Source: Marsupella aquatica
Lineage: Eukaryota > Plantae > Marchantiophyta
Assembly: GCA_973895155.1 (NCBI GenBank)
Contig: OZ316891.1
Span: forward strand, 25,233,899-25,297,898
DNA: 64,000 bases
Direction: 5' to 3'
Shown: piece by piece, positions 19,962 to 43,500 of the stretch
Layout of the letters: each line of letters begins with the position of its first letter
Position numbering within the stretch: the stretch's first letter is position 1
Position numbers and translations under genes: made by a program
The notes under the pieces: generated by a model
The model's database searches: none
The model's input: only the letters and a program-made list of their open reading frames with translations
Told to the model about the DNA's origin: nothing

Positions 19962-19974
19962 CGTGCTGATAACG
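19962..19974 (-). other. Copia primer-binding site, half-tRNA type (probably tRNA-Ile anticodon arm)
   Basis: CGTTATCAGCACG immediately after the 5' LTR, with no TGG start. Confidence 0.65.
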
Positions 19975-20172: not shown

Positions 20173-20667
20173 TTTTGAAGATATCCCAGATGGCTTGATC
20201 TTCCACATTCAATGCTCTGTACCAAGGCCTAGCCTCACCCTTGAACAGGCCGGGAAGAATCTGCATCTTGATGGCCGATTCTCCATTTGCTGCAGCGGTT
20301 CCTTCGAAATCATCCAACCATTCATCCGGATCCTCATCTCCTCTCCCATGAAACGCCTTGTAATGAATGCGCGACCGTTGGCTCAGTCTGGTCCCTGGCC
20401 TATTGTCTGGCCGTGCCTCAGGTTCCCCCATGTCGGTTGGGTACTCGTTTCTTCCTACCGACTCTTCTTCTGGTATCTCTTCTTCGACGCCACTCCCAGC
20501 TTTGGAGCTACCAGCTCTTTCTGCCCCTCTCAGTCGCTGTGTATCATGCCACCCGGCGAGCTGCTGCAAACGAGCTCTCTCCTGTTGAATTGCTCTTTCC
20601 TCCCTTGGCGTAGGTTCAGTCATTACCTACGCTTCTTTCCTAACTTCATATCTCACGGCTTAAGAAA

Positions 20668-20688
20668 TGCCCCCTCCATCTAGCGCCA
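20668..20688 (-). other. Primer-binding site of copy B
   Basis: TGGCGCTAGATGGAGGGGGCA, 4 nt (TTTT) after the LTR end CACCACA. Confidence 0.85.
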
Positions 20689-20692
20689 AAAA

Positions 20693-22018: not shown

Positions 22019-22051
22019 TAAACCCTAAACCCTAAACCCTAAACCCTAAAC
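22019..22051 (-). repeat. Interstitial plant-type telomeric repeat (TTTAGGG) x ~4.6 at an LTR-LTR junction
   Basis: TAAACCC x4 plus TAAAC on the + strand; absent from all other LTR copies. Confidence 0.92.
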
Positions 22052-23907: not shown

Positions 23908-24286
23908 ACCCTCCTTAGGTCGATCGTCGGTATCTACTCTCTCCCCGAGTGCTTGCCTAAGCAGCTGACAGTAGTTGGCCTCCCGTAGTCGTCTGCCTAG
24001 TTCGTGCTCGCAAATGAGCCACCATCTCCTGCAAGCGCTCCTTACCCCTCTCCTCTGCCGGTCCTTCTTCCCATTGATCCTTCCTAGCCGCCGACGCTTA
24101 ACGCGCCCTAACCCTAACCCTAATCAGGTTTTCACCCTCAGCCTTACCTCCGGCCTCTGCCCGGGTTCCATGGTTGCCCCTAATTGTTTATATTTTCCTT
24201 GTTTTGTCACTATACTAAGGTGTTCCTAGGGTGCCTTCCTGCTTTACCCACTTAACCGGCCGAGTGATTCCTGTCTAGGCATCACA
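22051..24286 (-). repeat. Truncated 3' LTR of copy C
   Basis: Starts after the PPT at 24286; matches about 32956-35179; ends at the telomeric tract. Confidence 0.92.
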
Positions 24287-27200
24287 TAGCTCCCCACTTA
24301 ATTGTGAAGCGTCCTCGCGAACAACTTCATCTTCGTCCATATAGTATTTCTTGAGGCGGTCATAATGGATGCGAACTGGATATACCTCTCCCGTTATGTT
24401 GGCCAATTGCACGGAGCCATTGGGGAACATCATGGTTACTCTAAAGGGTCCTAACCAGCGAGTGTAAAGCTTTCCTGGAAACCTACTATACCTACTGTCA
24501 TAAAGTAGCACAAGATCACCGGTATGAATACTAACTACTTTTAACCTTTTATCATACTGCTGCTTCATGATATTCTGTCTATATTCTACTCTCTCGGCTG
24601 AAATCATTCTCGCTTCCTCTAAAGCTTCTAACCTATATTCTCGCTCCTTTAGGCTCTCCTCCGCTGAGGCTCTTTCCTCAATTGTAACTTGAAATGTCGG
24701 TATCTCAAGTTGCATGGGTACCAGGGCTTCTTGTCCAAAGGTTAAGAAGAAGGGTGTATGACCGGTAGTGGATTTATAGGCAAGATTGTAAGCAAAAACA
24801 GCAGCAAACAATTTATCATCCCAATCGAGTTTGTTCTGAGCTACTGTCTTGTTCAATATCTTTCCTATGATTCCGTTTGCTCGTTCTGTCAACCCGTTTG
24901 CCTTTGGATGGTAGGGAGTAGTAGGCCTATGTTTAACTAAATACTGCTCATTTAAACGACTAATTATATCATTCAAAAAATGGGTTCCTCTATCACTAAC
25001 TAATTCTAGGGGTGCTCCATACCTGGTGAAGATCTGCTCATACATGAATCTAGCCGTAGTAATTGCATCATCCTTCGTTGTTGGTCTGGCCTCTACCCAT
25101 TTAGTTGCATAATCCGTAGCCAGGATTATGTACTTGTTCCGTCGAGGGTGGGTCAGTGGTTTCAGAGGTCCAATGTAATCAATACCCCACTTCTCGAATG
25201 GTGCCAGAGGTAGAATAGGGTGCAGTGGATGCCTGGTGGACGCCCTTGGTCCTCCCGCTCGTTGACAAGGATTGCATTGTTTGATAAACTGATAGACATC
25301 TTTGTGCAAGGTGGGCCACCAGTAACCGGCATTTAATATCTTCTTAGACGTGGTTACTGGGGCAAAATGTCCTCCGGCCTCCTCTCCATGCATGGCCCGT
25401 AGGACTCGTTTTACCTCTCTCTTTTCCAAACACCTTTGAATCGTGCCGTTGATTCCATGCTTGTGCAGTATGCCTTTAATGCACTGATACTGTCTGACCT
25501 TCCGCACAAAGACTGCGGCTTGCTCTCGGCTTAATCCTGGCTGTAATCTGGAAGTGCTGAGAAATTGTAAAATCTCAGGGTACCATGTACCAACTATTTC
25601 CACAACGAATAGCTCCTCGTCGGGGAATCGATCATCGATGCAATCCGTGGCAGGTTTACCTGTGATCCTTGAAAAGAAGTCGGCATTGGCATGTAACTTT
25701 CCCGGCTTGATCCTCAGCTCATAGTCAAACTCCTGTAATAGCAAAATCCATCTTGCTACTCTGCCTGTAAGGTCCGGCTTATTGACTAGGTACTTCAAAC
25801 TTTCATGATCAGTATGAAAGATTACCTTGTACCCTAGTAAATAATGCCTAAACTTTTTACAAGAATAAATGACTCCTAATGCTTCTCTTTCCGTGGTAGA
25901 GTAGTTCCGTTCGGCATCGGCAAGCTGACGGCTTGCGAAGTATATGGGATGGTCCCTTCCTTTCTCATCCAACTGACTTAGTACTGAGCCAATACAGAAG
26001 CCCGAGACATCTACAAAAACATGAAAATCTTTGTTCCAGTCCGGTGCTATCATGACTGGGGCCTCTACTAACATCTGCTTCAATTCTACCACCGCTGTGA
26101 CTCGTTCGGGTGTGGGTTCGAAGTCTGCTCCTGCCTTGAGCATATTGGTTAATGGTAAAGCTAGCTTGGCAAAATCCTTGATGAACCGGCGATAGTAACC
26201 AATGCATCCCAAGAAGGATCTTACATCCTTTATGTTCTTAGGTTGCATGATATCTAGCCATACTGCTAGCTTACCTTTGTCAATCTCAATGCCCTTCCTT
26301 GATACCTTGTGACCTAGTAGCACCCCCTCGGTTACTGCAAAAAAACATTTATCTGGGTGTAACTTGAGACCCACCTCTCTACATCTCATGAAGGTTTTCC
26401 TGAGGTATTTAGCATGTTTCGATGCCTTCCCGAATACTGCAAAGTCATCAATGAAGATTTCCATGAACTTTCTCAAGTAATCATGAAAAATGTTCACCAT
26501 TAATCGTTGGAACATAGCTGGTGCGTTGCAGAGTCCAAACGGCATACGATTGAAGACATAGATCCCCCATTCCGTGATGAAGGCCGTCTTGATTTGGTCT
26601 TCCTGCCGAATCCTGATTTGGTTATAACCAGAGTATCCATCCATGAATGAATATAGTTCATGACTGGCTACCATGTCTAGTACCATATCAGTAAACGGTA
26701 AAGGAAAATGGTCTTTTAATGTTGCTTCATTCAGCTTCCTGTAATCCTGACAAACCCGGATCTTGGGTTTACCATCGGGTCCAGCTTTCTTGGGCACTAT
26801 CACAATTGGAGACACCCAGTCTGAATGCAGGACTGGAGTGATGAATCCAGCTTCCACTAGTTTGTCGATTTCTGTTTTGACCAGCAGGGAATACTTCGGG
26901 TTCATCCTTCGAATTGGTTGTCGAAATGATTTGGCTCCTAACATGAGATCAATTCGATGTTCCCCTAGTGTTGGATCTACTCCCTTTAGATCTTGGTGAC
27001 TCCATGCAAACACATCCTGAAATTCAATCAATAAGTCACTGATCTCTTTCTCGAGCTCAGGTGCTAGGTTTCTCCCTAAGTTCAGTTCTCTTCCCTCTCC
27101 TAAGTCGAGCTTCCGATATTGCCGTGCTTGGATCATATTAATCTGCTTCTTCAAATTCGGGTCCAGTTCGGCTTCCAGTCTCTCTAATCTCATACCTCCA

Positions 27201-27541
27201 TAAACTGGGATCTCGGCTGGACTAGCCGAGTCGGTCCCTTCCTTGGTGTCCATAGATTGTCCCCTTACCGGTCTATTCGGTTTTGAATTAGTGGTTGGCT
27301 CCCCTTCCTGCCTTGGCTCTAGATTGTGTCTGTCCATCTCATCCACCTCTTGCTCCTGAGAGTTAGGCCGCTGTGCTCTCTCGGCTTCTAATAGGGCCTC
27401 AATTTGTTCTGCCCTTGTAATCGGCTTGTATGCCGATCCCTTGGTATTTAATTCCTTGCCGATGATCGATGGCGTTGTGGACCCTGTCGGCTCTGCCACA
27501 ACGCCTGCAGAAAATCCACTGTCCCTGCTACTGCTCCCCAC
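24275..27541 (-). CDS. pol: Pol (RT-RNase H-integrase), intact; probably expressed by -1 frameshift from gag-pro
   Basis: 1088 codons; FIDD, RH and DDE motifs; no chromodomain and no archaeal RH seen; stop codon lies inside the 3' LTR (TGT GAT GCC TAG). Confidence 0.95.
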   Translation of the reverse strand: MGSSSRDSGFSAGVVAEPTGSTTPSIIGKELNTKGSAYKPITRAEQIEALLEAERAQRPNSQEQEVDEMDRHNLEPRQEGEPTTNSKPNRPVRGQSMDTKEGTDSASPAEIPVYGGMRLERLEAELDPNLKKQINMIQARQYRKLDLGEGRELNLGRNLAPELEKEISDLLIEFQDVFAWSHQDLKGVDPTLGEHRIDLMLGAKSFRQPIRRMNPKYSLLVKTEIDKLVEAGFITPVLHSDWVSPIVIVPKKAGPDGKPKIRVCQDYRKLNEATLKDHFPLPFTDMVLDMVASHELYSFMDGYSGYNQIRIRQEDQIKTAFITEWGIYVFNRMPFGLCNAPAMFQRLMVNIFHDYLRKFMEIFIDDFAVFGKASKHAKYLRKTFMRCREVGLKLHPDKCFFAVTEGVLLGHKVSRKGIEIDKGKLAVWLDIMQPKNIKDVRSFLGCIGYYRRFIKDFAKLALPLTNMLKAGADFEPTPERVTAVVELKQMLVEAPVMIAPDWNKDFHVFVDVSGFCIGSVLSQLDEKGRDHPIYFASRQLADAERNYSTTEREALGVIYSCKKFRHYLLGYKVIFHTDHESLKYLVNKPDLTGRVARWILLLQEFDYELRIKPGKLHANADFFSRITGKPATDCIDDRFPDEELFVVEIVGTWYPEILQFLSTSRLQPGLSREQAAVFVRKVRQYQCIKGILHKHGINGTIQRCLEKREVKRVLRAMHGEEAGGHFAPVTTSKKILNAGYWWPTLHKDVYQFIKQCNPCQRAGGPRASTRHPLHPILPLAPFEKWGIDYIGPLKPLTHPRRNKYIILATDYATKWVEARPTTKDDAITTARFMYEQIFTRYGAPLELVSDRGTHFLNDIISRLNEQYLVKHRPTTPYHPKANGLTERANGIIGKILNKTVAQNKLDWDDKLFAAVFAYNLAYKSTTGHTPFFLTFGQEALVPMQLEIPTFQVTIEERASAEESLKEREYRLEALEEARMISAERVEYRQNIMKQQYDKRLKVVSIHTGDLVLLYDSRYSRFPGKLYTRWLGPFRVTMMFPNGSVQLANITGEVYPVRIHYDRLKKYYMDEDEVVREDASQLSGELCDA

Positions 27542-30441
27542 TTAGCTGTTTCATCCAATTGGTCTACATCCTTAACTTCCTCCAGAATTGCAGCTAAAAA
27601 GGTGGATTCTATTGTAAAGCAGTCCTCGACCTCTTCGTCTTCTTCTTCCAAGTCACCTTCCATTGGTTCTTGCCATAATCCGCTGGGGGGTACCTCTGGT
27701 CCAAAGACACCTTCTTCGGTTAGGTTAGTGAGGCATTCTAACCAACGTACTTCATCGGCTGACTCCAGTCCACTATCGTACCCATCTACTTCCCTTATGC
27801 TTTTCCTACGGTCATCCTTAGTGTCCCAGGATACCGTGATAGAGGGGGTCCCGAAAGTGAACTGCTTTTTACCCCAATCTTCTATTACCTCGGCTAGGTA
27901 CAGCCATGGCCTACCAATCAATAGCCGGAATGACGTAGGATTTACCGACTTCATTACTACATAGTTAATGCTAAAGAAGATACCTCCTATCTCTGTCTTG
28001 ATGCCGGTTAACACTCCCGTCGGAATGACCTGATATCCATTGGCCATGTTCAACACTCTTCCAGTCATCTCCGGTGTTAGACCCCACCCTTTTGCTGTTG
28101 AATCAATCATAATACATACCCCTGATCCTCCATCGATGGGTACCCGTAGTAATAATTCTCCTTGAATCATTAATGGTAATGTTGGGGCTCCTTGATCTTC
28201 TTCTATCATTAGTACGTCGGATCTGGTTGCTACCTTGGGTAATCTCGGCTTGCCGAGAATAGCCTTCCTTAATTGCTTCTGGAAGTACGGGCTATTTTTC
28301 AATAGTTGACCTACTGTTGCCGAGACTCTAGATTCTAGTACATCTTTAGCCAGGTCATAGGGAACAATCGGCTTCTCTTCTGGTGGTGTTTCCGTCTTGG
28401 ATTCGGCCAGTTTTGCCACGCTAGTCTCCACAGCTGTTGGGTCTTCCGAAGCAAACAATGCTTTTGCTCGTTTTACATCCTTGGCAATGGCTTTGGTATT
28501 CTCCAGGGTTTCTAATTCTCTTAGTTGTTCCTTAACACTAGCCGTAACAGAGGGGTAGAACAACTTAGGATGATCTTGATTGAAGTCGCTATCTTGTGAA
28601 GGATTGGTTTCACTGGTGGGCTCATGGCTTACCTGTATTGCCGGAGCCCTCCCTTCTCCTTCTGTTGATGTTGACGAAGAGTCGATCCTTTCCTCCGTAA
28701 CCTTCCCTTTATTTTTGGCCAGCCCATCCCACCTTTCCTTCCTTTTGGTAGATCGAGTAGAGACCCGGTAGCAATCATGATCTAAATCCTCCTCTGAGAA
28801 GGTTGATAGGGCTTCGGCCTCATCATCAGATGGTACAAACTCTGCCTCGGCATCCTCTTGCCATCCTAGTTCGATGTGGTTGATTTGAACTCCTCCGGGG
28901 GTAGTACCTGGCGGTAAGATCTTGATCGGCAAAAGCTTATGATTTGCGGCCAGGCCTGCCAACCAAGTAGGACATTGCCCTAGCATATGACCTTCCTGTC
29001 GGCATCCCATACATAGCTGAGCTGGTTGTCCATCACCCTGTTTGCGTGCATTCGGGCATTCTCTAGCAAAATGGCCAGGTTGACCACAATTATAGCACGC
29101 CGCAAATCTTTGCACATTCGGCCTAGGAGGTACTGACGGGTTCTGAATAATCCGAGGATACATCTCTCCTGGATTGTTCCTTAATCCTGACCACAGAGAT
29201 GCAGGTCTGTTGGATAGGTCTCGTGCTCCAGTCTCACTGATGCCGAAAACACTATCAGCGGCATCTCCCAAAAAGTACTCTACTTCTCCCTGACATGGTC
29301 TGATCTCGGCCACATGCCGAACATGATTAGTATTAAGCTTAGGACACGCATCTTTATGGTGTCCGGTTTTATAACATAAGGCACACCATACAGAGCTATC
29401 CTCCTGTACTACCTTCTTCTTTGGTTTTACCTCTGCAATGATAGCCTTAAGTTGCTCGGTAAGGGCTACGATGTTATCTGGTGGCTTAGCCTCCATCTTG
29501 ACTTTCGTCTTCCCTCTCCTTCTGCCCTTCCTTTTCCTAGTTTTTTCTTCTTCAGAACTAGAAGATGACTCACTCTTGCTACTCCCACTATCCGAGCTTG
29601 ACTTATCACTTCTAGACTTCTTGGAATGTTTCTTCTTCTTATCTTTTTTCTTATGGGGTGATCCCTCCTCTGATGAGGAACTCTCAGACTTAAGCTGTTT
29701 CTTCCGGCTTGTGATATCTGCATTAATGTATAATTGAATATCCTTAATTGCTTCGGCTAAAGTCTCCGGGTTCTCCTTCCTAATTGCAAAACTCATCTTC
29801 TGTGGCAAAGCATTCACCAACCATTGAAGTTGCATACCTTCAGATGCATTGGTCTTTGTACGTCTTACCAGTTTCTGAAAGCGTTGCAAGAACTTCCTGA
29901 AGGATTTGTTCTCCTTGAACCGAAGTTGTCCCAACTTCAGCACTGCTAGTTCTGAAGTTCCAATGGGTCGAAACTCCTTAACAAAGAGTGTTTTGAAGAT
30001 ATCCCAGATGGCTTGATCTTCCACATCTAATGCTCTGTACCAAGGCCTAGCCTCACCCTTGAACAGGCCGGGAAGAATCTGCATCTTGATGGCCGATTCT
30101 CCATTTGCTGCAGCGGTTCCCTCGAAATCATCCAACCATTCGTCCGGATCCTCATCTCCTCTCCCATGAAATGCCTTGTAATGTATGCGCGACCGCTGGC
30201 TCAATCTGGTCCCTGGCCTCTCGTCTGGCCGTGCCTCTGGTTCCCCCATGTCGGTTGGAGACTCACTTCTCCTTACCGACTCTTCTTCTGGTATGTCTTC
30301 TTCGACGCCACTTCCAGTTTCGGAGCTACCAGCTCTTTCTGCCCCTCTCAGTCGCTGTGTATCATGCCACCCGGCGAGCTGCTGCAGTCGAGCTCTCTCC
30401 CGTTGAATCACTCTTTCTTCCCTCGGCGTAAGGTCAGTCAT
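27448..30441 (-). CDS. gag: Gag-protease polyprotein, intact (997 aa)
   Basis: Capsid-like FHGRGDEDPDEWL...ARPWY; Lys/Ser-rich tract; three CCHC knuckles; aspartic protease PIDGGSGV...LLIGRPWL. Confidence 0.95.
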   Translation of the reverse strand: MTDLTPREERVIQRERARLQQLAGWHDTQRLRGAERAGSSETGSGVEEDIPEEESVRRSESPTDMGEPEARPDERPGTRLSQRSRIHYKAFHGRGDEDPDEWLDDFEGTAAANGESAIKMQILPGLFKGEARPWYRALDVEDQAIWDIFKTLFVKEFRPIGTSELAVLKLGQLRFKENKSFRKFLQRFQKLVRRTKTNASEGMQLQWLVNALPQKMSFAIRKENPETLAEAIKDIQLYINADITSRKKQLKSESSSSEEGSPHKKKDKKKKHSKKSRSDKSSSDSGSSKSESSSSSEEEKTRKRKGRRRGKTKVKMEAKPPDNIVALTEQLKAIIAEVKPKKKVVQEDSSVWCALCYKTGHHKDACPKLNTNHVRHVAEIRPCQGEVEYFLGDAADSVFGISETGARDLSNRPASLWSGLRNNPGEMYPRIIQNPSVPPRPNVQRFAACYNCGQPGHFARECPNARKQGDGQPAQLCMGCRQEGHMLGQCPTWLAGLAANHKLLPIKILPPGTTPGGVQINHIELGWQEDAEAEFVPSDDEAEALSTFSEEDLDHDCYRVSTRSTKRKERWDGLAKNKGKVTEERIDSSSTSTEGEGRAPAIQVSHEPTSETNPSQDSDFNQDHPKLFYPSVTASVKEQLRELETLENTKAIAKDVKRAKALFASEDPTAVETSVAKLAESKTETPPEEKPIVPYDLAKDVLESRVSATVGQLLKNSPYFQKQLRKAILGKPRLPKVATRSDVLMIEEDQGAPTLPLMIQGELLLRVPIDGGSGVCIMIDSTAKGWGLTPEMTGRVLNMANGYQVIPTGVLTGIKTEIGGIFFSINYVVMKSVNPTSFRLLIGRPWLYLAEVIEDWGKKQFTFGTPSITVSWDTKDDRRKSIREVDGYDSGLESADEVRWLECLTNLTEEGVFGPEVPPSGLWQEPMEGDLEEEDEEVEDCFTIESTFLAAILEEVKDVDQLDETAKWGAVAGTVDFLQALWQSRQGPQRHRSSARN

Positions 30442-30485
30442 TACCTACGCTTCCGTTCTAACTTCATATCTCACGGCTTAAGAAA

Positions 30486-30506
30486 TGCCCTCTCCATCTA
30501 GCGCCA
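30486..30506 (-). other. Primer-binding site of copy C
   Basis: TGGCGCTAGATGGAGAGGGCA after the LTR end and a TTTT spacer. Confidence 0.85.
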
Positions 30507-30510
30507 AAAA

Positions 30511-33500
30511 TGTGGTGCGTCCCATGGCTCCCTAAACCCAAGAAACCCCCCAGCTCAAGCCGATTCCCGCAGGTTTCGTGCTTGGCGAGGCCGTTTCCGC
30601 GGCTTAGCGGCATGGGACGCTGCTAACCTTCTACTACTACTATTAACATTTTACACACATATACTGGACAGATCCTTCATCGGGTCATGAGATACGTAGC
30701 CGGCCTAATATAGGCCTTCCCCTGTCTTCCCCTGTCTTCTTGTTAGGTATGTTTGGATTCCGCCGCCGGAATGATCCCCAATAGGCTTGGTTAAGCCGCT
30801 AAGACCTCTCTCAGCTCGACACATCCAACTATCACTCCCCTGCTTACTTTCCTTCCTTCTGTTGATGTGGGCACTCTTCACACAAGTTAATGCGACACAC
30901 AAATAGCAAAATGACTCATTCTGACTGAGTCATACCATGCACTTGCCATACAAACAGTACATCTCATACACAAGTTCTGCGAACTAAGCCGTGAGGCCAA
31001 CTCTATTCAGCTCTTAGGCATGAGGAAACATGAATATACACAAGGGTCACTGTATGACTAACCGAGAGCTTCTCGTACTACTTGATCCCAGCCCGGCTGG
31101 TGCAAACTAAAAACTTGCTAAAGAAGAGGCCCTGAGCTCCCCGCTGCCCAGGTACTTATCCTGGTAGTGGATCCGCCATTCTTTGCATCGTAAGCCTAAT
31201 CTACCTGACAGTAATCTACTTGCCCGAATCTACCTATGTACAGCAAGGCAGGAGCACAAGTGTTGCTCCTACCAGTGGAACCGCAATCCCACTAAGCTAA
31301 GTGTCAGGGCCGCTCCTGGTTCTGATCCTAATCCTAAACATGGAGATCCGCGCCCGCCCTGCCCACTCACGCCTCCTCCCTCCACGTCCGCCCTCCCTAA
31401 AAGGAACGGCGCCCTTGCACCGTCACGACACCGGTGGTGGATCCTCAATGGACGCCCCCAACACTTCCTCCTCAGCCACTGCCGTTGGCCCGCCTACTGA
31501 CAGATTACCTGCCCTTGACCGAGTCAACTCTCCATCGGCCTGACTGGGTCCACCTTCGGCTTCAGCCTCGACACCGGCCTTGGCAATACCCACGGCTTCG
31601 GCCTCAGCCACTCCCACGGCTTCGGCCTCAGCCACTCCCACGGCTTCGGCTTCAGCCACTCCCTCGGCTTCGGCCTCCCCTTCCCCTAGGGTAGTTGGAT
31701 CCTTAGCCGTGACCCTGTCTGGGGTCGGTGCTGGGTCTACCTCCTTGATCACCACGGCCTGTGAAGTCGTATTACTCCTTGACCCTGGAGGTTTCCGCTT
31801 CTTCTTCGTTGGTGGCTCGGCAGCTGGTCCCTTCCCCTTCCCACTTACTTCCGGCACTGGTGCAGTTGACGCGGCTTGTCCTTCGGCAATTACCACCCCT
31901 GGTAACTGGTTTGTCCCAACGGGAGATGGACCTGCTGCAGCTAAGCATTTAAATACTGCGGCTTGTTTCTTCAGCCGCTCTGTTTGGTTGTCGGCCCGCC
32001 GCTGTAGGTTCTCCATCTTCCTCGTGATTTCCTCCAACTCCTCTTGGGTTTCATCCAGGTCCTTACGTGCCCCCTCCAGCTCGTTTTTGGCCTCCTCCTG
32101 CTCCCTGTGGGCTTCCTCCAATTCCTTCTTCAAGGTAGCCCTCTCCTCCTGGGTTGCTCTTAGCTCCTTGTCGAGCTCTGCAATGATGACAAACTCCATC
32201 TGGTTCATCTTGGCGTAAGTCTGTTCGAGCATCTCGTCCTTCTCCCTTAGGTCGGCCTTGAAGCTGGCCGTCAGGGACGCAAGCTCCTGCTGCAGCGCCA
32301 TAATCCCTTGATAGGATTTCCCTAACTCGACCTCCTTCTGCTCAAGGGCTCCGCGGATTTTCTCGAGCTCCCCTTTCAACGCCCATTCCTTTCTTTGGGT
32401 CTCCGCCATGGCCCGACTGTTGGCTGTTATGTGGGCCTCCTCTGTATTCTTCAGCTCTTGCTTCCACTTCTCCCTCTCTTTGATCGTGTCGGCCAACTCT
32501 TCCTGCGTCTGAGTCAGTTTATCCTTGATATTCTGATTATCAGCCTGCGCGGCGTCCAACTGCCCCTGCATGATGTTCAGCTCATGTCGTTTAATCCGCA
32601 GTTCATCTTGGGCTTTCTTGGCCGCCCTTAGATTTTCAATCTCGGCTTCCATCCTCCTAAGCCGCCGAATGACCTCGTCCTTCTTGCTTCTCTCTAAAGC
32701 CACCGCTTCTTCTAATTGGTGCTTCTCCAACTGCTCCCTGTGAAAAAAGGGTCCTACCTCCAACTCCTCTCCAAAGATGCCGAGCGCAAGTTCCCCACAC
32801 ATCTCACCATACTCCATGGCTCTATTCTTAGCGTAGGTGGAGTAAGTAGAAGTGATCGGCATCGCCCATCGTGGCCTCTGCTCCCACGCCGTCCTGCGGA
32901 TCTCTTCAATCGTGGCTAGAGGTTTGCTTCCTTTTTCGGCTAGCCGCCTGATGTCCTCCGGCCAATCTCCTCCTGGTAAATCCTTTTCCTTAGCCAGGGT
33001 GGCCTCTTCCTCCTGCTTGATTCGCTCCTGAAATTCCTGCACCGTCTGTTTTATGCCGTCGAAGCTCGGGGGAGCGACATCTGGTGGGGGAGACTCAGGG
33101 CTACTCTGCTGGTTGGGGTCCCCTCGCACTACCCTTGGAAGTGTGGGGACAAACCGGCCATAGGTCCTTACTCCTGGAACGTGATGGTCCGACCCATAGC
33201 CGGAATTATCATGGCTGCAGTCCTCCACTGCCTCCTCTACCTCTTGGACGTCCGGCTTCTCCCTCTCCTCTTCGTCGGTAGGAGCTTCAGGCAATTCTGC
33301 CTCAAATTCGGAGCTTGAGGTTCCCACGTACATTCGAACACCTGGCTTGGATTCCGGCCTGATTCTCTTCTTGTCTCCAGCAAAGGGGTTTTCTCTTGTG
33401 AGCCGGTGTAGGCCTACCTCTGTAGTAGTGTCCTGCATTGTTGCCGTTGTTGTTGCCGATGCCGATTTCTTTTCTTTCTCCAGTAGTTTCAGCAGACTCT

Positions 33501-35179
33501 GCATGCCTGGTTGCTGCATCGGCAAGTCTTCCTTCCTGGGCCTAAACACCTGCTCGATCGTAGGACTAACAGGTGGTTGAGGCTTCTCAGCCAACGGCCT
33601 CGGCGTTGGAGCTTCCTCGGGTGCCCTTACCTGCAGGGGAAGTACCGGGGCAAAAGTCTGACCTCTGGCATACCGGCACAACAGCGGCATGTGATAGCCA
33701 AGCCGCGACATGCTCCCCATGCCGATTACCTGCTGCTCCTCCTTTAAGATCTTCTTCAATTGGTTGAGGAGGTACCCGTTGTAGTCCCGGCTTGGGTCTG
33801 GCCTTTCTGCCAGATAGACCTGTGCCTTGCCGATCTCTGCCCTCGGTAAGTTACAATGCATGGTCACCCGCAAGAAGTCGATCATCTCTCCTATGTGCGG
33901 GTTGGTGCAGGTGTTCCGGAAGAAGCCATTCTTCGTTGATGGCCCGGGGAACGACCGGAACTCCTTGTCAGGCAAGGTCTTCCTGGTATCAACTTTGGTC
34001 TTATTGCCCATCGGCAAGCCAAACACTTCGGCAATCACCTTGGGAGTAAGATAGAAATCCTTCCCATATATCCTCGTGCAATTGGTCTCGGGTTCCCATG
34101 ACCCCACGAATTCTAATAGGTCTGACTCCGGTACCTCCGGCTTCAGCCATGGTAATCTTACAAAGGCCTCCAAGCCGGATCCGGCCATGAAGCCTTGGTA
34201 CTTCTTGGTCTGCATGGCCGTAAAGCATGCATCCTCCTCCCGTGCAAAATGTAGTTGCACCTCCACCGGTAGGGTTGCCGCCCAGCCCTTCCAGGTGTCA
34301 TCCCTGGTTGGAATGGCCTTGATGGGATCGACCTCCTCCTCTTCGGCTTCTCCCTGCCTCCTGCTCTGCTGCTCGGCTGGCTTCTTTGGTGCCACCGACC
34401 TCGTTCTTTTTGCCGGGGTGGCTTCATCGTTGACGGCCCCCTTCCTCTTCATCTCTACTGCCGTGGAGGTTTCTCCTAGCACCGTTGCCTGGGTCCACCT
34501 TTCCGTGCTACCCTTTAATTCCCAGTGTATGTCGTTGCAGTTCTTGATGGCCTCTCGGATGCCGACGACGCTGTCTTTGCAAAACAGAAGATCGTCGAGT
34601 TGATTGGAAGTAGGCGTCCACAGGAACTCGTCCTTGATGAGTTCGCCTCCTAAGAAAGCCGTCTTCTGCAGCTCCCACAATCGAGCGAGCTCCTGCCGTT
34701 CTCGAGCTGCCCTTTCTGACTCCTCGTCCTCGTAAGTCTTGATGTACTCAGTTGCTCGTTCGAACAGGCATCCCCAGAAATGTGCCGCTTGATTGACGTT
34801 GCTCATACCCTCCTTAGGTCGATCGTCGGTATCTACTCTCTCCCCGAGTGCTTGCCTAAGCAGCTGACAGTAGTTGGCCTCCCGTAGTCGTCTCCCTAGT
34901 TCGTGCTCGCAAATGAGCCACCATCTCCTGCAAGCGCTCCTTACCCCTCTCCTCTGCCGGTCCTTCTTCCCGTTGATCCTTCCTAGCCGCCGACGCTTAA
35001 CGCGCCCTAACCCTAATCAGGTTTTCACCCTCAGCCTTACCTCCGGCCTCTGCCCGGGTTCCATGGTTGCCCCTAATTGTTTATATTTTCCTTGTTTTGT
35101 CACTATACTAAGGTGTTCCTAGGGTGCCTTCCTGCTTTACCCACTTAACCGGCCGAGTGATTCCTGTCTAGGCATCACA
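30511..35179 (-). repeat. Complete 5' LTR of copy C (4669 bp)
   Basis: TGTGGTGC...GCATCACA termini (7/8 inverted repeat); adjacent to the PBS; unrelated context beyond 35179. Confidence 0.94.
31423..34806 (-). CDS. LTR-encoded accessory protein, intact 1127 aa (Athila ORF/PMD-like domain, acidic linker, long coiled coil, basic NLS-like KKKRK, EAEAVGVA repeats)
   Basis: Uninterrupted ORF entirely inside the LTR; GLEAFVRLPW...LLEFV...IYGKDFYLTPKVIAEVFGLP motif. Confidence 0.9.
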   Translation of the reverse strand: MSNVNQAAHFWGCLFERATEYIKTYEDEESERAARERQELARLWELQKTAFLGGELIKDEFLWTPTSNQLDDLLFCKDSVVGIREAIKNCNDIHWELKGSTERWTQATVLGETSTAVEMKRKGAVNDEATPAKRTRSVAPKKPAEQQSRRQGEAEEEEVDPIKAIPTRDDTWKGWAATLPVEVQLHFAREEDACFTAMQTKKYQGFMAGSGLEAFVRLPWLKPEVPESDLLEFVGSWEPETNCTRIYGKDFYLTPKVIAEVFGLPMGNKTKVDTRKTLPDKEFRSFPGPSTKNGFFRNTCTNPHIGEMIDFLRVTMHCNLPRAEIGKAQVYLAERPDPSRDYNGYLLNQLKKILKEEQQVIGMGSMSRLGYHMPLLCRYARGQTFAPVLPLQVRAPEEAPTPRPLAEKPQPPVSPTIEQVFRPRKEDLPMQQPGMQSLLKLLEKEKKSASATTTATMQDTTTEVGLHRLTRENPFAGDKKRIRPESKPGVRMYVGTSSSEFEAELPEAPTDEEEREKPDVQEVEEAVEDCSHDNSGYGSDHHVPGVRTYGRFVPTLPRVVRGDPNQQSSPESPPPDVAPPSFDGIKQTVQEFQERIKQEEEATLAKEKDLPGGDWPEDIRRLAEKGSKPLATIEEIRRTAWEQRPRWAMPITSTYSTYAKNRAMEYGEMCGELALGIFGEELEVGPFFHREQLEKHQLEEAVALERSKKDEVIRRLRRMEAEIENLRAAKKAQDELRIKRHELNIMQGQLDAAQADNQNIKDKLTQTQEELADTIKEREKWKQELKNTEEAHITANSRAMAETQRKEWALKGELEKIRGALEQKEVELGKSYQGIMALQQELASLTASFKADLREKDEMLEQTYAKMNQMEFVIIAELDKELRATQEERATLKKELEEAHREQEEAKNELEGARKDLDETQEELEEITRKMENLQRRADNQTERLKKQAAVFKCLAAAGPSPVGTNQLPGVVIAEGQAASTAPVPEVSGKGKGPAAEPPTKKKRKPPGSRSNTTSQAVVIKEVDPAPTPDRVTAKDPTTLGEGEAEAEGVAEAEAVGVAEAEAVGVAEAEAVGIAKAGVEAEAEGGPSQADGELTRSRAGNLSVGGPTAVAEEEVLGASIEDPPPVS

Positions 35180-35490: not shown

Positions 35491-36857
35491 GCTTGGACTA
35501 CCGGCTTCTCTCGCTGTTCTCCTGGTTTTGTCGTGAACACGGCTTCACCTCTCATCGGTCTTGGTTCCTCCTCCGGCTCCCGTGTTGATCTCTTGTTCTC
35601 CTTGTCGTGGCCGAGAGCTACGGCCTGCTTCTCCTCGGCTTCGGGACTAGAGGCTCCTACATACATCCGGACTCTCGGATCGTGTTCCGGCCTCCTTCTC
35701 TCCTTGACTCCAGTAAAGGGGTTTTCCTTTGTAAGCCGGTTTAGGCCAACCTCTGGAGCAGTGTCCTGTATTGTTACCGTTGCCGTTGCCGTTGCAATTC
35801 TATTTTCTCTCTCCAGCAATTTCAGCAGATTCTGCATGCCTGGTTGTTGCATCGGCAAGTCCTCCGTCCTTGGCCTAAACACCTGCTCAATTGTAGGACT
35901 GTCGGGCGGGTTGGGTTTCTCCGTTGCTGGCCTCTGTTCCGGAACCTCCTCGGGTGCCCTTGCCTGTAGGGGAAGTACCGGGGCAAAGGTCTTACTTCGG
36001 GCATACCGACACAATAGCGGCATGTGATAGCCAAGTTGGGACACGCTTCCCTTGCCGATCACCAGCTGTTCCTCCTTCAAGATCTTCTTTAGTTGAGTGA
36101 GGAGGTAACCGTTGTAGTCCCGGCTTGGGTCTAGCCTCTCTGCCAGATAGACCTGTGCCTTGCCAATCTCTGGTCTCGGCCAGTTGCAATGCATGGTCAC
36201 CCGCAAGAAATCGATCATCTCACCTATATGCGAGTTGGTGCAGGTGTTACGGAAGAAGCCATTCTTTGTTGAAGGCCCTGGAAACGACCTAAACTCCGTG
36301 TCTGGCAAGGTCTTCCTGGTATCTACCTTGGTCTTATTGCCCATTGGCAAGCCGAACACTTCGGCAAGCACCTGGGGAGTGAGATAGAAATCCTTCCCAT
36401 ACACCCGTGTGGAATTGGTGTCAGACTCCCATGATCCCATGAATTCAAGGAAGTCTGAATTCGGTACCTCCGGCTTCAACCACGGTAACCTTACAAAGGC
36501 TTCCAAGCCGGATCCGGCCATGAAGCCCTGATATTTCCGAGTCTGCATAGCCGTAAAGCATGCATCCTCCTCCCTTGCAAAGTGTAATTGGACCTCCTTG
36601 GGGAGGATCGCCGCCCAGCCTTTCCAGGTGTCATCTCTCGTTGGAATGGCGTTGATGGGGTCGACCTCCTCCTCCTCCTTGGCTTCTCTCTGCCTCCTGC
36701 TCTCCTATTCGGCTGGCTTCTTTGGTGCCGCCGACCTCGTTCTTTTTGCCGGGGTGGCCCCTCGTTGTTGTTTCCCTTTCTCTTCATCTCAGCTACCGTG
36801 GATGTCTCTCCTAGCACGGTTGCCTTTGTCCACCCCTCTGTGCTACCCTTCAACTCC
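35491..36857 (-). pseudogene. Internal fragment of a diverged family-1 LTR ORF (fragment E; possibly the rest of the 5' LTR of copy B)
   Basis: ORF 35466-36548 is clearly homologous to the LTR ORF; cut by D on the left and by a deletion on the right. Confidence 0.85.
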
Positions 36858-37460
36858 CTAAGAGTTTGTCCGGCCCTTCTTCTTATGCCGTCGTCTTTTC
36901 TTCCTTTTCTTCTTGTCGTACTCAGAGTTGGAATCGCAAAAGGTATGATACCTCCTGCTCTTCTTATGCTTGGTCCTCCTATTAAGCTGAGAGGCGTAGT
37001 GCGATTCCCTGAAGGATTTGGCACTAACAATTGCTTGTTGTAGAGTTGTGGTCTTCTTTTCTAGCACTGAGAACGCCATCCTCTAGGGTAGCGCGTTGAC
37101 GAACCATTTCCTCAACAGGGAGTCATTGGGCTTAGGCCAAATCTTGGCGGCAACCTTCTAGAATCGCTGCAGAAATTTGCGAAGTGAGTCATGCTTACCC
37201 ATCTGCATTCGTCCAATTTTTGACAGGGCCCGAGATTCAATCCCCACGGACCTAAACTCTTGCAAAAACGCCGTCTAGAACTGGCCCCATGTGAAGCCGG
37301 GGGGTTGCAAGTTAAACCACGGGCGCGCTTCTCCCCGTAGCACGCCTGGAAGGATGGTTAGCTTAATGGCCTCCTCGCCATTTGCCTTGGCTATGGCCTC
37401 AAACTCAGCTAGCCACTCATCGGGGTCGTCCGTGGGTCATCCCTTGAAGGGTCGATAGTG
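36858..37460 (-). pseudogene. gag: gag remnant of element F
   Basis: Homologous to the N-terminal capsid region of copy C gag; several TAG stops. Confidence 0.78.
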
Positions 37461-40400
37461 GAACCAATATCGTTGTGACACATTCTGGGCTGCCGAAGGC
37501 CGCAATGCACCTGGTGCCTACGGGGCTGGTGGAACCGGTGGAGTTCCTCCCGCCGCTTGTTTGAGAGGGTCCAAACCATAAACGGTAATATTTTCCCAAA
37601 AAATGAGAAAAAAATATTCCTTGGCTAACAAAGCATGGGGTTCATATTGGAATTGGGATCCAAAAGAAACTTGCTTGGGTTCCCATCACAATAAGCGATC
37701 CTGCTTGGGAAGCCAAGCTCCTCGCTCCACCGGATGCGGTATTTCCTTCCAAACTTGATGCTCCATCTGGTTGTTGTAAATACACAGAACGTGAGCGGGT
37801 AAGGGGCATGCCCCTTCCTACACGTCAAGGACAAAATCAAAGGTTAATAGCTCACTACACGGCTCCACTCGTAAGGCAAAATGAGTGCCCCCTCCATCTA
37901 GCGCCAAAAAACCGGTCGCCGTATGTTGCGCCCCTAACCCGGGCCTTAAATCCAGTTTAGTTCCATGGGGCGACCTTGACCGCCAGTAGGGGTGAGGGTT
38001 CGAGCAAGGAGGTGTGTAGTGACCTTGATTAGCCCTAAGTTGGGCTAAGGCAATATACTTACTGGTATAAGACTCACGCAACTCGTACTAGTCATAGGTA
38101 TATTTGTTTTCCACTGCTGGAATATTCCCATAGTTAGTGACTCGGACTAACTCCCGGCTTGGGGCTTTCAAGCCATCGACGCGACAGAACCTTGTGACAT
38201 GCAATGGGTGGCAATCCCTACCATTAGTCCGCACCCGGTACGTCCCTTGAAATGACGCCTTTGCCCAGACAAAGCATACACACAACATCAGTTACTCGCG
38301 GAAACATTAGAGGAAAAAGACTATATTTACTCCACGAAGAATCGGTTTACATAGTTGACTCAACTTCTAAGGGGGTCAGCAGGCCCAACGGCAGTCGATG
38401 CCCAGTCCCTACGAGGCCCCGCCCCGCACTCGCCCAGCAAGCTCGACTTTGGCTCTCACTCCTTAGTGCACTCTGACCCTGCTCAGGCCGGGACTCCCTG
38501 TGCCTTGCCTTTTCTTATGCTGAAATAAGTAAACCTTCTCCCCTCCCACAGCGGAAGGGGAAGCCTAAATACTATGGTTGCGGAAAGGAACCGAAAGATA
38601 CTACCTTCCAGGGTAATGCCTACTGACTAACTACCCTCTGACTAGCCAGCCGCACTCCTTTGACCGGTTGACCATCGGCGGCAAGGGTGCTGACCGGGGT
38701 GGTAGCAACTAAGTCCACTAACCAAAATCTAGTCCGTTGATGGACTCTATCCTATGTTGACTGATCCTAACTGATCCCGTCCTAATTCTTCCTGTTGTGC
38801 CACTAATCGGCGCCTAATGACAGCTATTTTGTCGTTAAGCCTAATAAAAAAGATGCTACTGACTCAACTGTCCCGTGCAGCGCCTGCTCACACCCCCGGT
38901 AACCACCCCTTACGTGCGTGTTGTGGTTGGGCCAGGGTTTGTCCCCCTGTCGGGGCGAGACCTCGAGCCGCCTTGATCAGGGGTGGGCCCTGGTCTTCCC
39001 CGCTGGAGGACGAGCAGGGTAATGCGGTCCTGCAAGGCCTTGTTGTCCCGCACCGCCTCCTCCGCCTCGTTTGCAGCTTCATCGACCTCTGTCTAGAGCC
39101 GTGCTACCTCCAGGTTGAGCTGGTCGATGGAGTCACGATGGGTTTGGTCCTGCGCCAGAAATTTATCCCGTTCGGCGGAGAGACTAGCCACCTACTGAGC
39201 TGCTTGTAGGAATTGGTTGTTGAGGTCGGTCAGGCTGGTAACCCGAGCCGAGGATTCCGAGCGCAACTGAAGCACGATGTCGTCCAGCTTCTTGAGATCC
39301 GCTTGCGCCCTGCTCAACTCCTAGGTTAGTCCGTCCCTTTGTTCGACGATGCGGACTAACTCCTCACGGCGGGTAGTGGCCTCCTCCTCGAGGTGTTCTA
39401 CCAGCATTTGGAGGCGCCCAATCTCATTCCCCTTCGCCATGAGTTCTTCTTCCAAGCGGCTTACGATCTGTGGTTGGTGCTCTAATATGAAGAAGGTTGG
39501 TTGAAAGTATGTCAAGACTTGTTGTCCGATGTACGGCGCCAGCTCCCTTGACAGAGTCTGACTAAACTTCTGGACCAGGTCGTAGGCCATGGTCCTCGGG
39601 GCTACTTGGTAGTCCTCCATCCTCTCGGGTACCGGCGGTTCCTCGGGTGGGGTGGTGAGCTCCTCCATAGTTTGCACTAGGGAAGGAAAGGTTTCTTCAG
39701 GTGGTGGAGGGATTGGGGGTGGTTGTACTACGGGTAGCGGAAGCTTGATGGAAGGGGGCGGCGGAATTTCAACAGGAGGGGGTGACGGAGTATTAGTCGA
39801 GGCCTCCGGCTTGGGGTTTGCCTGAGGCATGGTAGTCCGCTCGCTCGGGGATGCCTCCTCTAGAGCGGGGATGACATTAGTCGGGGCTGAGGTGGCCATA
39901 TTCTTTCCTCTGGCCTCCCGCCGCGCCTTGTACCAGGTGAGGATGATGGCGATATGACTTCCCAAGTAAGTCTTTCCCCCAATAGCCATACCTCCCTGAG
40001 CCCGCTTAAGCTCCCCAGAGAACCTTTGGTAAAAGAATTGGGCCCAGTTCTGCCGTTTGTACTGTTCCACTTGTACGATTGTGCAAAGGGAGATCTTGGA
40101 TCGTGGCTCAATCATGTGTAGGGTAGTCCGTATGAAGTTAAGCCGCTCCAGGCAGATTAAGTTGGTGCACAACCCCTACTTGTATCCGTTGTCCATCTTA
40201 CCTTTGGGTTTGAAGTGCCGAGGTGTATACTCCTTATCCTGAATTTGGAGTTCAACCGGCACCGGCCCGGTTGGCAGGCAAAAGATCTGTGCTAACCAAT
40301 GCTTTGTGAGTGATAAGGTCTATCCTAAAACCTTGGTGGTCGATGCGTCATTGTCAAAATTGGAGATGAACTCACAAATCTCCTTTGGCCCGGCTGCGCA

Positions 40401-40504
40401 CGGTCTCCATAGCAAGTGAGCAAACTACTCCAACTGATGCTCCTTGAGGTAGTCCGCATGGTCGAGTTTCTTGATTGCGATCCAAACTACCTCGGGGACG
40501 CGGA

Positions 40505-43500
40505 TGTGGTGCATCCCATGCTCCCCAAACCCAAGAAACCCCCCCGCACAAGCCGATTCCCGCAGGTTTCATGCTCGGCGAGGCCGTTTCCGTAGCTTAG
40601 TGGCATGGGATGCTGCTAACCTCCTACTATTACTATTAATATTTTACACACATATACTGGACAGATCATTCATCGGGTCATGAGATACGCAGTTGGCCTA
40701 ATCTAGACCTTCTCTTGTCTTTCCCTCCTGTTGGTTAGGTATATTTGGATTCCGCCGCCAGAATGATCCCCAATTGGTTTGGTTAAGCCGCTAAGACCTC
40801 TCTCAGCTTGACACATCCAACTCTCACTCCCTTGCTTACTTCCCTTCTACTTGTTGATGTGGGCACTCTTCACACAAGTTAATGCGACACACAAATAGCA
40901 AAATGACTCCTTTTGACTGAGTTATAGCATGCACTTGCAATACAAACAGTACATCTCATAGACAAGCTCTGCAAACTAAGCCGTGAGACCAACTCTATTC
41001 AGTTCTTAGGTATGAGGAAACATGAATATACACAAGGGTCATTGTATAACTAACCGAGAGCTTCTCTTACTACTTGATCCCAGCCTTGCTGGTGCAACTA
41101 AAAACTTGCTAAAGAAGAGGCCCTGAACTCCCCGCCGCCCAAGTACTTATCCTGGTCGCGGATCCGCCTGATTCCTTGCAGCATAAGCCTAATCTACCTA
41201 CTGTAATCTACTTGACTGTAATCTACCTATGTACAGCAAGGCAGGAGCACAAGTGTCGCCCTCACCCATGGATCCAAAATCCCACTAATCTAAGTGTCAG
41301 GGCTGTCTCCTGGTCCTGATCCTAAGTCTAGACTTGGAGATCAGCGCCCGCCCTGCCCACTCACGCCTCCTACCTCCACGTCCGCCTTCCCTAAAAGGGA
41401 CGGCGCCCTTACACCGTCACGACACCGGTGGCTGGTCCTCACTGGACGCCCCCAACGCATCCTCCGCAGCCACTGCCGTTGGTCCGTCCTATGACAGATT
41501 ACCTGCCCTTGACCGAGTCAACTCTTCATCGGCCTGATTGGGTCCACCGTCGGCTTTGGCCTCAGCCTCGATCACGGCCTCCGATACGGCTATGGCCTCC
41601 CCGACATGTTCTAGTGGAGGATCCGGTACCTCGGCATCATTACTGGTTCTCCCGGCCTCGGCCTTGCCATCTCCACTTCCTAGGACTGATGGATCCACCG
41701 CCGTGCCGATGCTGGAGATTGTTACGGCTTTATCTTCTCGGTCACAACAGCTTGAGAAGCCGTATAACTCCCAGACCTAGAAGGTTTCCGCTTCTTCTTC
41801 TTCCCTATTTTGACAGCCGGTTCCTTCCCCTTGCCACTTACCTTCGGCACCTGGGTGAGTGTTTCGGCTTGTCCTGCGGCCAATACTACCCCTGGTAACT
41901 GGGTTCCCCCAATTGGAGTTGGACCTGATGAAGCCAAGCATTTAAATACTGTGGCTTGTGTCTTCAGCCGCTCTGTTTGGTTGTTGGCCCTCCGCTGTAG
42001 GTTCTCCATCTTCCTTGTGATTTCCTCCAACTCCTCCTGGGTCTCGTCCAGGTCCTTGCATGCCTCCTCCAACTCCTTATTGGCTTCCTCCAATTCTTTC
42101 TTTAAGGTAGCCCTCTCCTCCTGGGTTGCTCTTAGCTCCTTGTCGAGCTCTGCTACAACCACAGACTCCATTTTATTCATCTTGGCATAAGTCTGGTTGA
42201 ACTGGTCGTCCTTTTCGCGTAGGTCAGCCTTGAAGCTGGCCGTTAGGGACGCAAGCTCCTGTTGCAGCGCAAAATCCCTTGATAGGATTTCCCTAACTCT
42301 GCTTCCTTCTGCTCAAGGGCTCCGCGGATATCTTTGAGCTCTCCTTTCAACGCCCTCTCCCTTCTTTGGTTCTCCGCCATTGCCCGATTGTTGGTTGCTA
42401 AGTGGGCCTCCTCTGCATCCCTTAGCTCCCGCTTCCATTTCTCTCTTTCTTTGACTGCGCCGGCCAACTCTCCTTGGGTCCAAATCAGTTTATCCTTGAT
42501 AATCTGATTGTCAGACTGAGCGGTATCCAACTGCCCCTGCATGATGTTTAGCTCATGCCGCTTAATCCGTAGCTCATCTTGGGCTTTCTTGGCCACCTGC
42601 AGGATTTCCACCTTGGCTTCCTTCTCCCTAAGCCGTCGGATGACCTTGTCCTTCTTGCTTCTCTCCAAAACCACCGCTTCTTCTAATTCGTGCTTTTCCA
42701 ACATCTCCCTCTGGAAAAAGGGTCCCTGCTCCAACTCCTCCCCAAAGATACTAAGCGCCAGGTCCTCACACATCTCCCCGTACTCCATGGCTCTATCCTT
42801 AGCATAGGTGGAGTAACTAGAAGTCATCGGCATCAACCACCGCGGCCTCTGCTCCCAAGCCGCCTTGCGGATTTCTTCTATGGTGGCAAGAGGGTTGCTT
42901 CTTTTTTCGGCAAGCCGCCTGATGTCCTCCAGCCAATCTCCTCCTGGTAAATCCTTTTCCCTAGCCAGGGCTGCTTTCTCTTCCTCCCTAAGTCGCTCCT
43001 GAAATTCTTGTGCCGTCTGCTTTATGCCGTCAAAGCTCGGGGGAGCAATCTTTGGTGGGGGAGACTCGGGGCTATTTTTTTGGGTGGGGTCCCCTCGAAC
43101 TACTCTTGGAAGCGTGGGGATAAATTGGCCACAGGTCCTTACTCCTAGAACATGATGATCCGACCCATAGCCGGAGTTATCATTGTTGTAGTCCTCCACC
43201 GCCTCCTCCACTACTTGGACTCCCGGCTTCTCCCTTTGGTCCCCTGGTCCAATCGTAAAAATGGCCTCTGGTTCCTCTGGTTTCCAGGCTGTCGTCTCCC
43301 TCTGCTCTCCGCGGGAAGGAGCCTTAGGTTGCTCTGCCTCTGATTCGGGGCTTGAGGCTCCCACATACATTCGCACTCCCGGCTTGTGTTCTGGCCTCCT
43401 GGTCTCCTTGGTTCCGGTAAAGGGGTCTTCCCTTCTGAGTCGGCTTAGGCCGACCTCTGGGGCAACGTCCTGTATTGGTGCCGTTGCCGGAACCATTGCC

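Follow-up and report, generated by a model that had tools for sequence, protein, structure and literature searches.

A giant long terminal repeat enclosing a conserved accessory gene in an Athila-like retrotransposon of the liverwort Marsupella aquatica

We analysed 64,000 nucleotides of the genome of the liverwort Marsupella aquatica (GenBank assembly GCA_973895155.1, contig OZ316891.1, positions 25,233,899 to 25,297,898 of the forward strand), referred to here as the window. On its minus strand lies a Ty3/gypsy retrotransposon, element 1, whose 5' long terminal repeat (LTR) encloses a whole accessory open reading frame (ORF). An earlier inspection of the letters alone, without database searches and called here the sequence-only reading, had drawn attention to this giant LTR. 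Boundaries were set by comparing the window with itself and by reading the junctions, and the features are collected in Table 1. The domain order gag, protease, reverse transcriptase (RT), RNase H and integrase, together with a primer-binding site (PBS), a polypurine tract (PPT), LTRs of the form TG...CA and a target-site duplication (TSD), is that of Ty3/gypsy elements. The LTR starts with TGTGATG, ends with CACCACA and is followed by TTTTTGGCGCTAGA, which is the PBS, and then by gag. This PBS may be of the Asn-tRNA type; it is unlike the Asp type of FIDEL. The gag-protease and pol ORFs overlap by 94 bp (27448-27541) in different frames, and a programmed frameshift behind the protease is likely.

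Table 1. Coordinates of element 1, its LTR-borne gene and related copies in the window.
Feature	Position	Strand	Remarks
5' LTR of element 1 (family A)	30511..35179	-	4,669 bp, TG...CA
PBS	30489..30506	-	TGGCGCTAGA..., behind 5' LTR
gag-protease ORF	27448..30444	-	from domain search
pol: RT, RNase H, integrase	24275..27541	-	frame differs from gag; overlaps gag
GTTCGCG..GG...TCAC motif and PPT	24287..24322	-	conserved; sets LTR start
3' LTR of element 1	22051..24286	-	broken off after 2,236 bp
Accessory ORF, 1,127 aa	31423..34806	-	ATG 34806, stop 31423; sole intact copy in window
N-terminal helical domain, about aa 1-105	34447..34806	-	also kept in Calypogeia proteins and in families D and E; pLDDT 69
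Core globular domain, aa 171-397	33616..34296	-	pLDDT 89.7; distantly Transposase_32/PMD/DUF1985-like
Long charged heptad region	31950..32760	-	likely coiled coil; weak coiled-coil Pfam matches
Non-coding LTR tail, 912 bp	30511..31422	-	behind accessory ORF
TATAAA box and upstream ATG	35062..35085	-	kept in 6/6 family-A LTR starts
Full 3' LTR of second family-A element (pol 567-3308)	3297..7950	+	ORF with one in-frame stop
Older subfamily element	7951..21964	-	5' LTR remnant 20693-21964; Copia insertion internally; 3' LTR start 7951-8587
Internal LTR fragment of further subfamily	35491..36870	-	with core domain; from self-comparison
Family D 5' LTR	37924..46464	-	about 3.8 kb after subtracting the insertion 40505-45228 (a solo LTR); right boundary placed to within about 13 bp
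Solo LTR, diverged subfamily (84%)	40505..45228	-	TSD GCGGA; ORF broken
Solo LTR, 97.5% to 5' LTR	50151..54777	-	TSD TTCCT; a single frameshift in the ORF
Family E solo LTR, 3,985 bp	57207..61191	+	TSD TATAG

The sequence-only reading held that the LTR begins directly behind the PPT, takes in the stop codon of pol and ends at the PBS, and the junctions at 24286 and at 30511-35179 agree with this. The stop codon (24275-24277) falls within the 3' LTR, whose start at 24286 adjoins the purine tract, and equal PPT-LTR junctions are present at 3297 and 8587. The two family-A solo copies have the same ends, as had been noted, and 5-bp TSDs flank all three solo LTRs of the window. With a PBS behind it, a PPT before its 3' twin and such solo copies, the 4,669-bp unit is a true LTR. 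That it is instead a non-autonomous mini-element, a nested transposon or an assembly artefact is very improbable. The heavy nesting of the window and the truncation of the 3' LTR might invite such an explanation, but it is refuted by the TSD-flanked copies and by the like ends at the PPT and PBS junctions, and the layout is common to three families and several relatives. A self-comparison of the unit found no terminal direct repeat inside it, which argues against a mini-element with short LTRs. The two LTRs of element 1 differ at 17 of 2,224 sites. Because the 3' LTR is truncated, the window contains no element showing two full LTRs; the LTR share of about 60% given by the sequence-only reading agrees with the value calculated for a complete element of 15.6 kb.

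The accessory ORF covers 72% of the LTR, in line with the three quarters first estimated. A longer form of about 1,200 aa had also been put forward. Its upstream ATG is in frame in all six family-A LTR starts, but the frame is open in only two of them, and the ratio of non-silent to silent substitution rates (dN/dS) in the extension, 0.76 and 1.57, gives no sign of purifying selection. The longer form was not accepted as coding sequence, and 1,127 aa is the safer length. Among the four full-length family-A LTRs the ORF is intact only in that of element 1; besides the lesions given in Table 1, the copy at 40505-45228 has two frameshifts as well as stops. A 24-bp tandem repeat (31555-31690) in the ORF tail encodes AEGVAEAE-like units, and its copy number differs in frame between copies.

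Pairwise codon counts with bootstrap ranges were used to estimate dN/dS across copies, solo LTRs included, as the sequence-only reading had recommended. Against the diverged solo LTR at 40505-45228 the whole ORF gave 0.31 (bootstrap 0.25-0.37), with 0.11 (0.06-0.20) in the core domain, 0.24 in the coiled coil and 0.21 in the N-terminal domain. Against the fragment at 35491-36870 the value was 0.20, and 0.10 in the core domain; the young copies gave 0.44 and 0.30, and the controls 0.06 and 0.10 for pol and 0.12 for gag. The two LTRs of one element diverge only after insertion, and those of element 1 differ in the ORF by 13 non-silent and 2 silent changes, the pattern expected of neutral decay. 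The ORF is under purifying selection between subfamilies and decays neutrally once inserted. Low ratios between subfamilies together with broken inserted copies indicate that selection maintains the gene while the lineage replicates; in the few inserted copies sampled here it does not.

These results bear on the idea that solo LTRs are working, self-contained cassettes which supply the factor in trans, the layout being kept for that benefit; the sequence-only reading had likewise supposed that a working gene is left behind by solo-LTR formation. A solo LTR does retain the ORF, a candidate promoter ahead of it and the LTR tail behind it, and in Grande the accessory gene, whose protein is nuclear, has its own promoter (PMC7264820). 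The element was found in six DNA runs (four organisms, four studies), and in four of them the median contig depth relative to gag was 2.8-3.5x for the ORF, 2.7-4.6x for the LTR tail and 1.5-2.6x for the LTR head. Summed contig depth is no copy number, but the pattern, present in all four runs, hints that solo LTRs are common and would weakly fit an ORF that moves together with its LTR. However, the ORF is broken in all three solo LTRs of the window (two of family A, one of family E), a small sample that is silent on young solo LTRs, and the preponderance of non-silent changes between the LTRs of element 1 also speaks against a maintained cassette. We consider this explanation unlikely, and the supposed persistence of a working factor was not borne out. 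Solo LTRs would instead acquire the cassette incidentally, and drift would then remove it.

The architecture is wider than the sequence-only reading had described, since it recurs in families D and E and in metagenome relatives. The family D LTR contains a decayed homologous ORF and is followed by a PBS of the same type as in family A and by a gag remnant (37481-37029, 42% to the gag of family A). In family E the homologous ORF lies at about 57673-60295, with stops and a frameshift, and TATAAAAA is found at 57565. Although the core domains of families D and E are only 23-24% identical to that of family A, all three families have in common the N-terminal helical domain, the core domain, the coiled-coil region, a tail of 0.9-1.0 kb and a 28-bp motif 185-261 bp ahead of the LTR end. 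Families D and E also carry TATTTA boxes, at 647 and 685 bp from the LTR end. The ORF-in-LTR layout is shared by three families in the window and probably by wider relatives.

An integrase scan of metagenomes yielded 78 loci (L-numbers), and one of viral contigs yielded none. The pol-end motif with a PPT occurs in ten of the 78, once in each. In nine (L001, L002, L004-L009 and L029, the last a duplicate of L006) the motif stands at the end of pol and is followed by a purine tract and TG; in the tenth, L003, motif and PPT stand behind the ORF. The domain profile matched behind pol in seven loci (L003, L004, L005, L006, L007, L015 and L040; E 3e-9 to 0.26, a further match at 0.85 being noise), and a profile built from the metagenome ORF domains matched the window profile with E=2e-7 and a probability of 93.5. 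In L004-L007 the ORF follows the pol-end motif, and the DNA present holds no second motif; 0.2-1.1 kb lies behind the ORF in L004, L006 and L007, and L005 ends inside it. The contigs of L005 and L008 also include the 5' LTR end and PBS, and the TGTGGGA after pol forms an inverted repeat of that LTR end (first 9/9 bases and 9/13 overall in L005, 12/13 in L008). In L008 the portions of 3' LTR (870 bp) and 5' LTR (1,394 bp) do not overlap, so its LTR exceeds 2.2 kb.

The other layout is found in L003, whose contig measures 10.9 kb and has a 123-bp repeat at its ends; it reads pol, a purine tract without motif, a 745-aa ORF, motif and PPT, an LTR of about 1 kb, PBS and gag. Three loci, L010, L015 and L040, have no motif at the end of pol in contigs too short for a second PPT (in L015 the tract is followed by TG), and their layout was inferred by kinship, L010 and L015 standing on the tree and L040 being unplaced. 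Neither motif nor domain was present in the 10 kb behind pol in L018, L057 and L060, which belong to a Marchantia-like clade. The pol tree (IQ-TREE) comprised 21 of 32 rows, L007 and L009 being among the 11 left out. ORF-in-LTR rows fall on one side of a branch with support 80/93 and the L003 group on another, and deeper branches lack resolution. Among further details of these loci, L001, the closest metagenome relative (62% in integrase), has motif, PPT and LTR start inside the pol frame (898-969) as in the window. Where gag and pol of the window element overlap in different frames, those of L005 and L008 share one frame and are separated by a stop. Diverged tandem duplications of 150-220 bp occur in the non-coding LTR tails of L008 (180-677) and L006 (5440-5843).

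The closest named pol proteins come from Calypogeia fissa (69-70% over RT-RNase H), followed by Riccia and Marchantia, and pol falls in a bryophyte clade far from the angiosperm rows (about 42% identity). In two sets of ORF homologues that were checked, Calypogeia or Riccia records made up 7/10 and 3/10. A chromovirus was rejected, as no chromodomain match follows the integrase and pol ends within the LTR. Tat (TatI-III, Ogre, Retand) was rejected on the single RNase H with about 100 aa to the integrase zinc finger; the trees contained no Tat reference, and Tat clades without the additional RNase H are reported from Marchantia (PMC10508981). Phygy of moss and Selgy of Selaginella resemble element 1 in their non-seed-plant hosts, in having no extra RNase H and in an internal part filled by the coding region. 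They differ in 4-bp TSDs, which exclude them here, and in a Trp or Ala PBS, and the survey's account of them lists no extra ORF (PMC6317226).

TSDs of 5 bp and the lack of an extra RNase H thus speak for Athila rather than for Tat, Phygy or Selgy; in Athila, 5-bp TSDs are reported for 95% of elements and the PBS is of tRNA-Asp type in 72% and tRNA-Asn type in 12% (PMC6317226). With Athila as described (PMC6317226, PMC1142308, PMC2844528) element 1 shares the 5-bp TSD, the absence of an extra RNase H and of a chromodomain, and a sense accessory ORF 3' of pol, and its close relatives L003, L005 and L008 have an Asp-like PBS. The window element differs in its PPT at the end of pol, in its ORF inside the LTR, in a PBS that is not of Asp type and in a protein with no membrane segment; the extra ORF between pol and PPT that marks Athila is present in L003, whereas in the window the ORF lies behind the PPT. 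The element fits an Athila-like assignment, set by TSD and domains, with trees built without REXdb references. Athila4 and Calypso reportedly have two PPTs.

The presence of two layouts among relatives, with motif and PPT before the ORF in one and after it in the other, points to the capture of a conventional 3' accessory gene, likely into the unique 3' (U3) part of the LTR. Angiosperm Athila-group elements carry their ORF between pol and PPT, which makes capture into the LTR the likelier direction. The LTR start would be fixed by the point at which RNase H leaves the plus-strand primer, and with a primer at the end of pol all DNA downstream becomes LTR. Capture would then have followed from a shift that placed the primer site, and with it the LTR start, upstream of the formerly internal gene, an origin that we regard as reasonably supported. 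A reversed course of events, in which the bryophyte lineage began with the ORF-in-LTR layout and L003 gained its internal layout through a new PPT behind the gene, its pol-end purine tract being a relic, is quite unlikely. It could draw on the like ends of the two purine tracts in L003 and on the poorly resolved deeper tree, but the angiosperm outgroup has the ORF between pol and PPT (PMC1142308; PMC7264820).

Within the LTR, the tail behind the ORF changes less than silent sites do (p-distance 0.095 as against a silent divergence, dS, of 0.44) and likely holds the core promoter, the repeated (R) region and the unique 5' (U5) region, which would place the ORF in U3. Genomic RNA would start within the 0.9-kb tail of the 5' LTR and hold a single copy of the gene, at the 3' end; both LTRs would receive the gene when the plus strand is made from the PPT at the end of pol. 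The sequence-only reading had the element carrying the gene twice, which is right for the DNA, whereas an ORF in U3 implies one copy in the RNA, two in the DNA and one per solo LTR. A separate promoter, situated in the first 0.4-0.8 kb of the LTR, may drive the ORF itself, whose transcript would end at the LTR poly(A) site. Such a promoter in the LTR head is likely, albeit on thin evidence, and the TATAAA region at 35062..35085 is the candidate for it.

The same box underlies a competing layout in which a single promoter at the LTR 5' end (TATAAA, LTR position 95) makes the ORF a first cistron in R or U5, like the 5' extra ORF of Ogre, the giant LTR having arisen by a shift on the PBS side. 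Consistent with this, TATAAA and the in-frame upstream ATG are kept in all six family-A LTR starts and the family A tail has no clear TATA. It is nonetheless improbable, given that the homologous ORF of L003 sits 3' of pol and before the PPT, that the tail, in which families D and E have TATTTA boxes, is long and strongly conserved, and that minus strong-stop DNA would presumably exceed 4 kb. TTAGGG telomere-like repeats, which resemble teloboxes, occur in the LTR head (35005-35019 and copies) with two or three units per copy; teloboxes are reported to recruit PRC2 through TRB proteins in Arabidopsis (10.1101/2024.09.27.615353).

The accessory protein has no membrane segment (highest 19-residue hydropathy 1.11), which rules out an env-like role. 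Behind the heptad region, PPTKKKRK (aa 998-1005) is a likely nuclear localisation signal. A search with a profile of five core domains from the window yielded 86 proteins (E<=0.001) out of 1.84 billion, and 4 of 46 scanned homologues matched PF20167 Transposase_32 with 17-32 bits, below the cut-off of 45; the window profile matched those four with E=5e-17. A protein atlas gave unnamed plant clusters at 0.90-0.91, DUF1985 at 0.89 and PMD at 0.88. The core domain is thereby weakly linked to Transposase_32, PMD and DUF1985. PMD-C and the DUF1985 of VANC are reported to share a fold (10.1101/2024.09.27.615353), VANC is described as an anti-silencing DNA-binding protein and MAIL1/MAIN as countering Polycomb (10.1101/2024.09.27.615353; 10.1101/2024.04.02.587720), and PRC2 is reported to repress transposons in bryophytes (10.1101/2022.10.24.513474). 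Through this chain of weak links, anti-silencing is our best guess for the function. The chromatin factors VANC (DUF1985) and MAIL1/MAIN (PMD) are weak domain leads, and the window protein is, like them, likely nuclear; it differs in reaching no curated Pfam cut-off and in possessing an extra N-terminal domain and a long coiled coil.

Other searches returned little. No family or fold match to the N-terminal domain came from structure searches or, in usable form, from the atlas, and a PDB sequence search gave four weak matches, all outside the core domain. A word-seeded search with residues 1-420 found no match among proteins of 619-1,973 aa, and 161 pattern matches to the family-A core domain in a scan of metagenome contigs left none confirmed. 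The sequence-only reading had suggested an anti-silencing or targeting factor, and a role at chromatin fits the weak Transposase_32/PMD/DUF1985 link. Its other half, an integration-targeting or ribonucleoprotein-scaffold factor built from a globular domain and a long coiled coil, is rather unlikely but has points in its favour. A long coiled-coil region is present in all families, ATLANTYS is reported to encode a globular and long-helix protein like ASY2 (10.1101/2024.04.02.587720), and the elements of the window are inserted into one another. Such nesting is frequent where DNA is rich in repeats, however, and the only family leads are Transposase_32, DUF1985 and PMD.

We give a probability of roughly 0.6 to the reading that an Athila-like Ty3/gypsy element has an LTR which starts where pol ends and encloses an entire conserved gene, likely in U3, captured from an internal position and likely encoding a nuclear DNA- or chromatin-binding anti-silencing factor. 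Several observations weigh against it. No element of the window and no metagenome locus has two full LTRs, and the internal layout was directly seen in a single contig (L003, which has no TSD). The ORF-in-LTR branch is not starred and appears in 82% of bootstrap trees. A strict TATAWAW precedes the ORF in two of seven ORF-in-LTR leaders, where shuffled sequences give one in 12-26% of cases, a frequency within chance, and the same scan found no TATA-like box in the family A tail. Atlas scores under 0.9 are leads only. Neither the window ORF domains, which have weak coiled-coil Pfam matches, nor the seven metagenome ORFs gave a Pfam match of the Transposase_32, PMD or DUF1985 kind, and the core domain had no fold match in PDB or BFVD (Foldseek and a second structure search). 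In a bolder version, an entire bryophyte clade of Athila-like elements has transferred a VANC/PMD-like anti-silencing gene, promoter included, to U3, which would make each new LTR, whether solo or not, self-activating and able to counter Polycomb silencing of its family in trans. This version seems doubtful to us; if it were true, solo-LTR recombination by the host would leave activators behind rather than remove them.

The sequence-only reading had suspected an undescribed architecture. No plant element with an accessory gene inside its LTR was found in full-text searches of open papers, among them PMC6317226, PMC3485330, PMC12885004, PMC10508981, PMC6431247 and PMC2844528; subscription papers, Repbase, REXdb or bioRxiv supplements may describe one. 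Within plant Athila-like elements, as far as this open literature reaches, an accessory gene inside the LTR is new, and the analogue is the sag gene of mouse mammary tumour virus (MMTV). Like the window ORF, sag is reported to be an accessory ORF that lies entirely within the LTR and is copied to either end, and MMTV has extra U3 promoters upstream of the classical one (PMC12789967). It differs in belonging to an animal retrovirus, in encoding a membrane superantigen and in showing no homology to the window ORF. Ogre, Retand and Grande (PMD, Transposase_28) and ORF0 of Retrosat2 offer conserved accessory ORFs and LTRs of up to 5-6.5 kb (PMC6317226, PMC6431247), but their ORFs are described as internal, and the extra RNase H of Tat is absent from the window element. 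Both the sag gene and the MMTV LTR are far shorter than their window counterparts.

A plant LTR that is mostly coding thus exists in several families beside a sister with the ordinary layout, which makes the gene's move from the internal region to the LTR traceable and testable. LTR finders cap the length of LTRs. Surveys place extra ORFs up- or downstream of the polyprotein (PMC6317226), and with that scope and those caps the ORF-in-LTR class is easily missed. Annotations probably list solo LTRs of this class as host genes, and many Calypogeia proteins labelled 'unnamed' are homologues. For Athila-type extra ORFs, whose function has long been open, the gene offers a candidate that can be worked on, in hosts reported to silence transposons by PRC2 (10.1101/2022.10.24.513474).

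Family members are nested several times in one another's LTRs in the window, and element 1 itself inserted into a 311-bp family-A LTR end of opposite orientation (35180-35490). To the left of 22051, as far as about 21960, its 3' LTR breaks into four plant telomere repeats and then a 45-bp fold-back of the neighbouring LTR, which looks like a healed and re-joined chromosome break. A young Copia element (14297-20172), with a single 1,575-aa ORF, 199-bp LTRs that are 99.5% alike and the TSD TTTTG, sits in the gag of the older family-A element. A DUF7869 ORF on the minus strand (62615-63514, E=6e-28) is likely part of a decayed DNA transposon, and the flanks at 46465-50150 and 54778-57206 contain terminal and tandem repeats, short and of the same kind.

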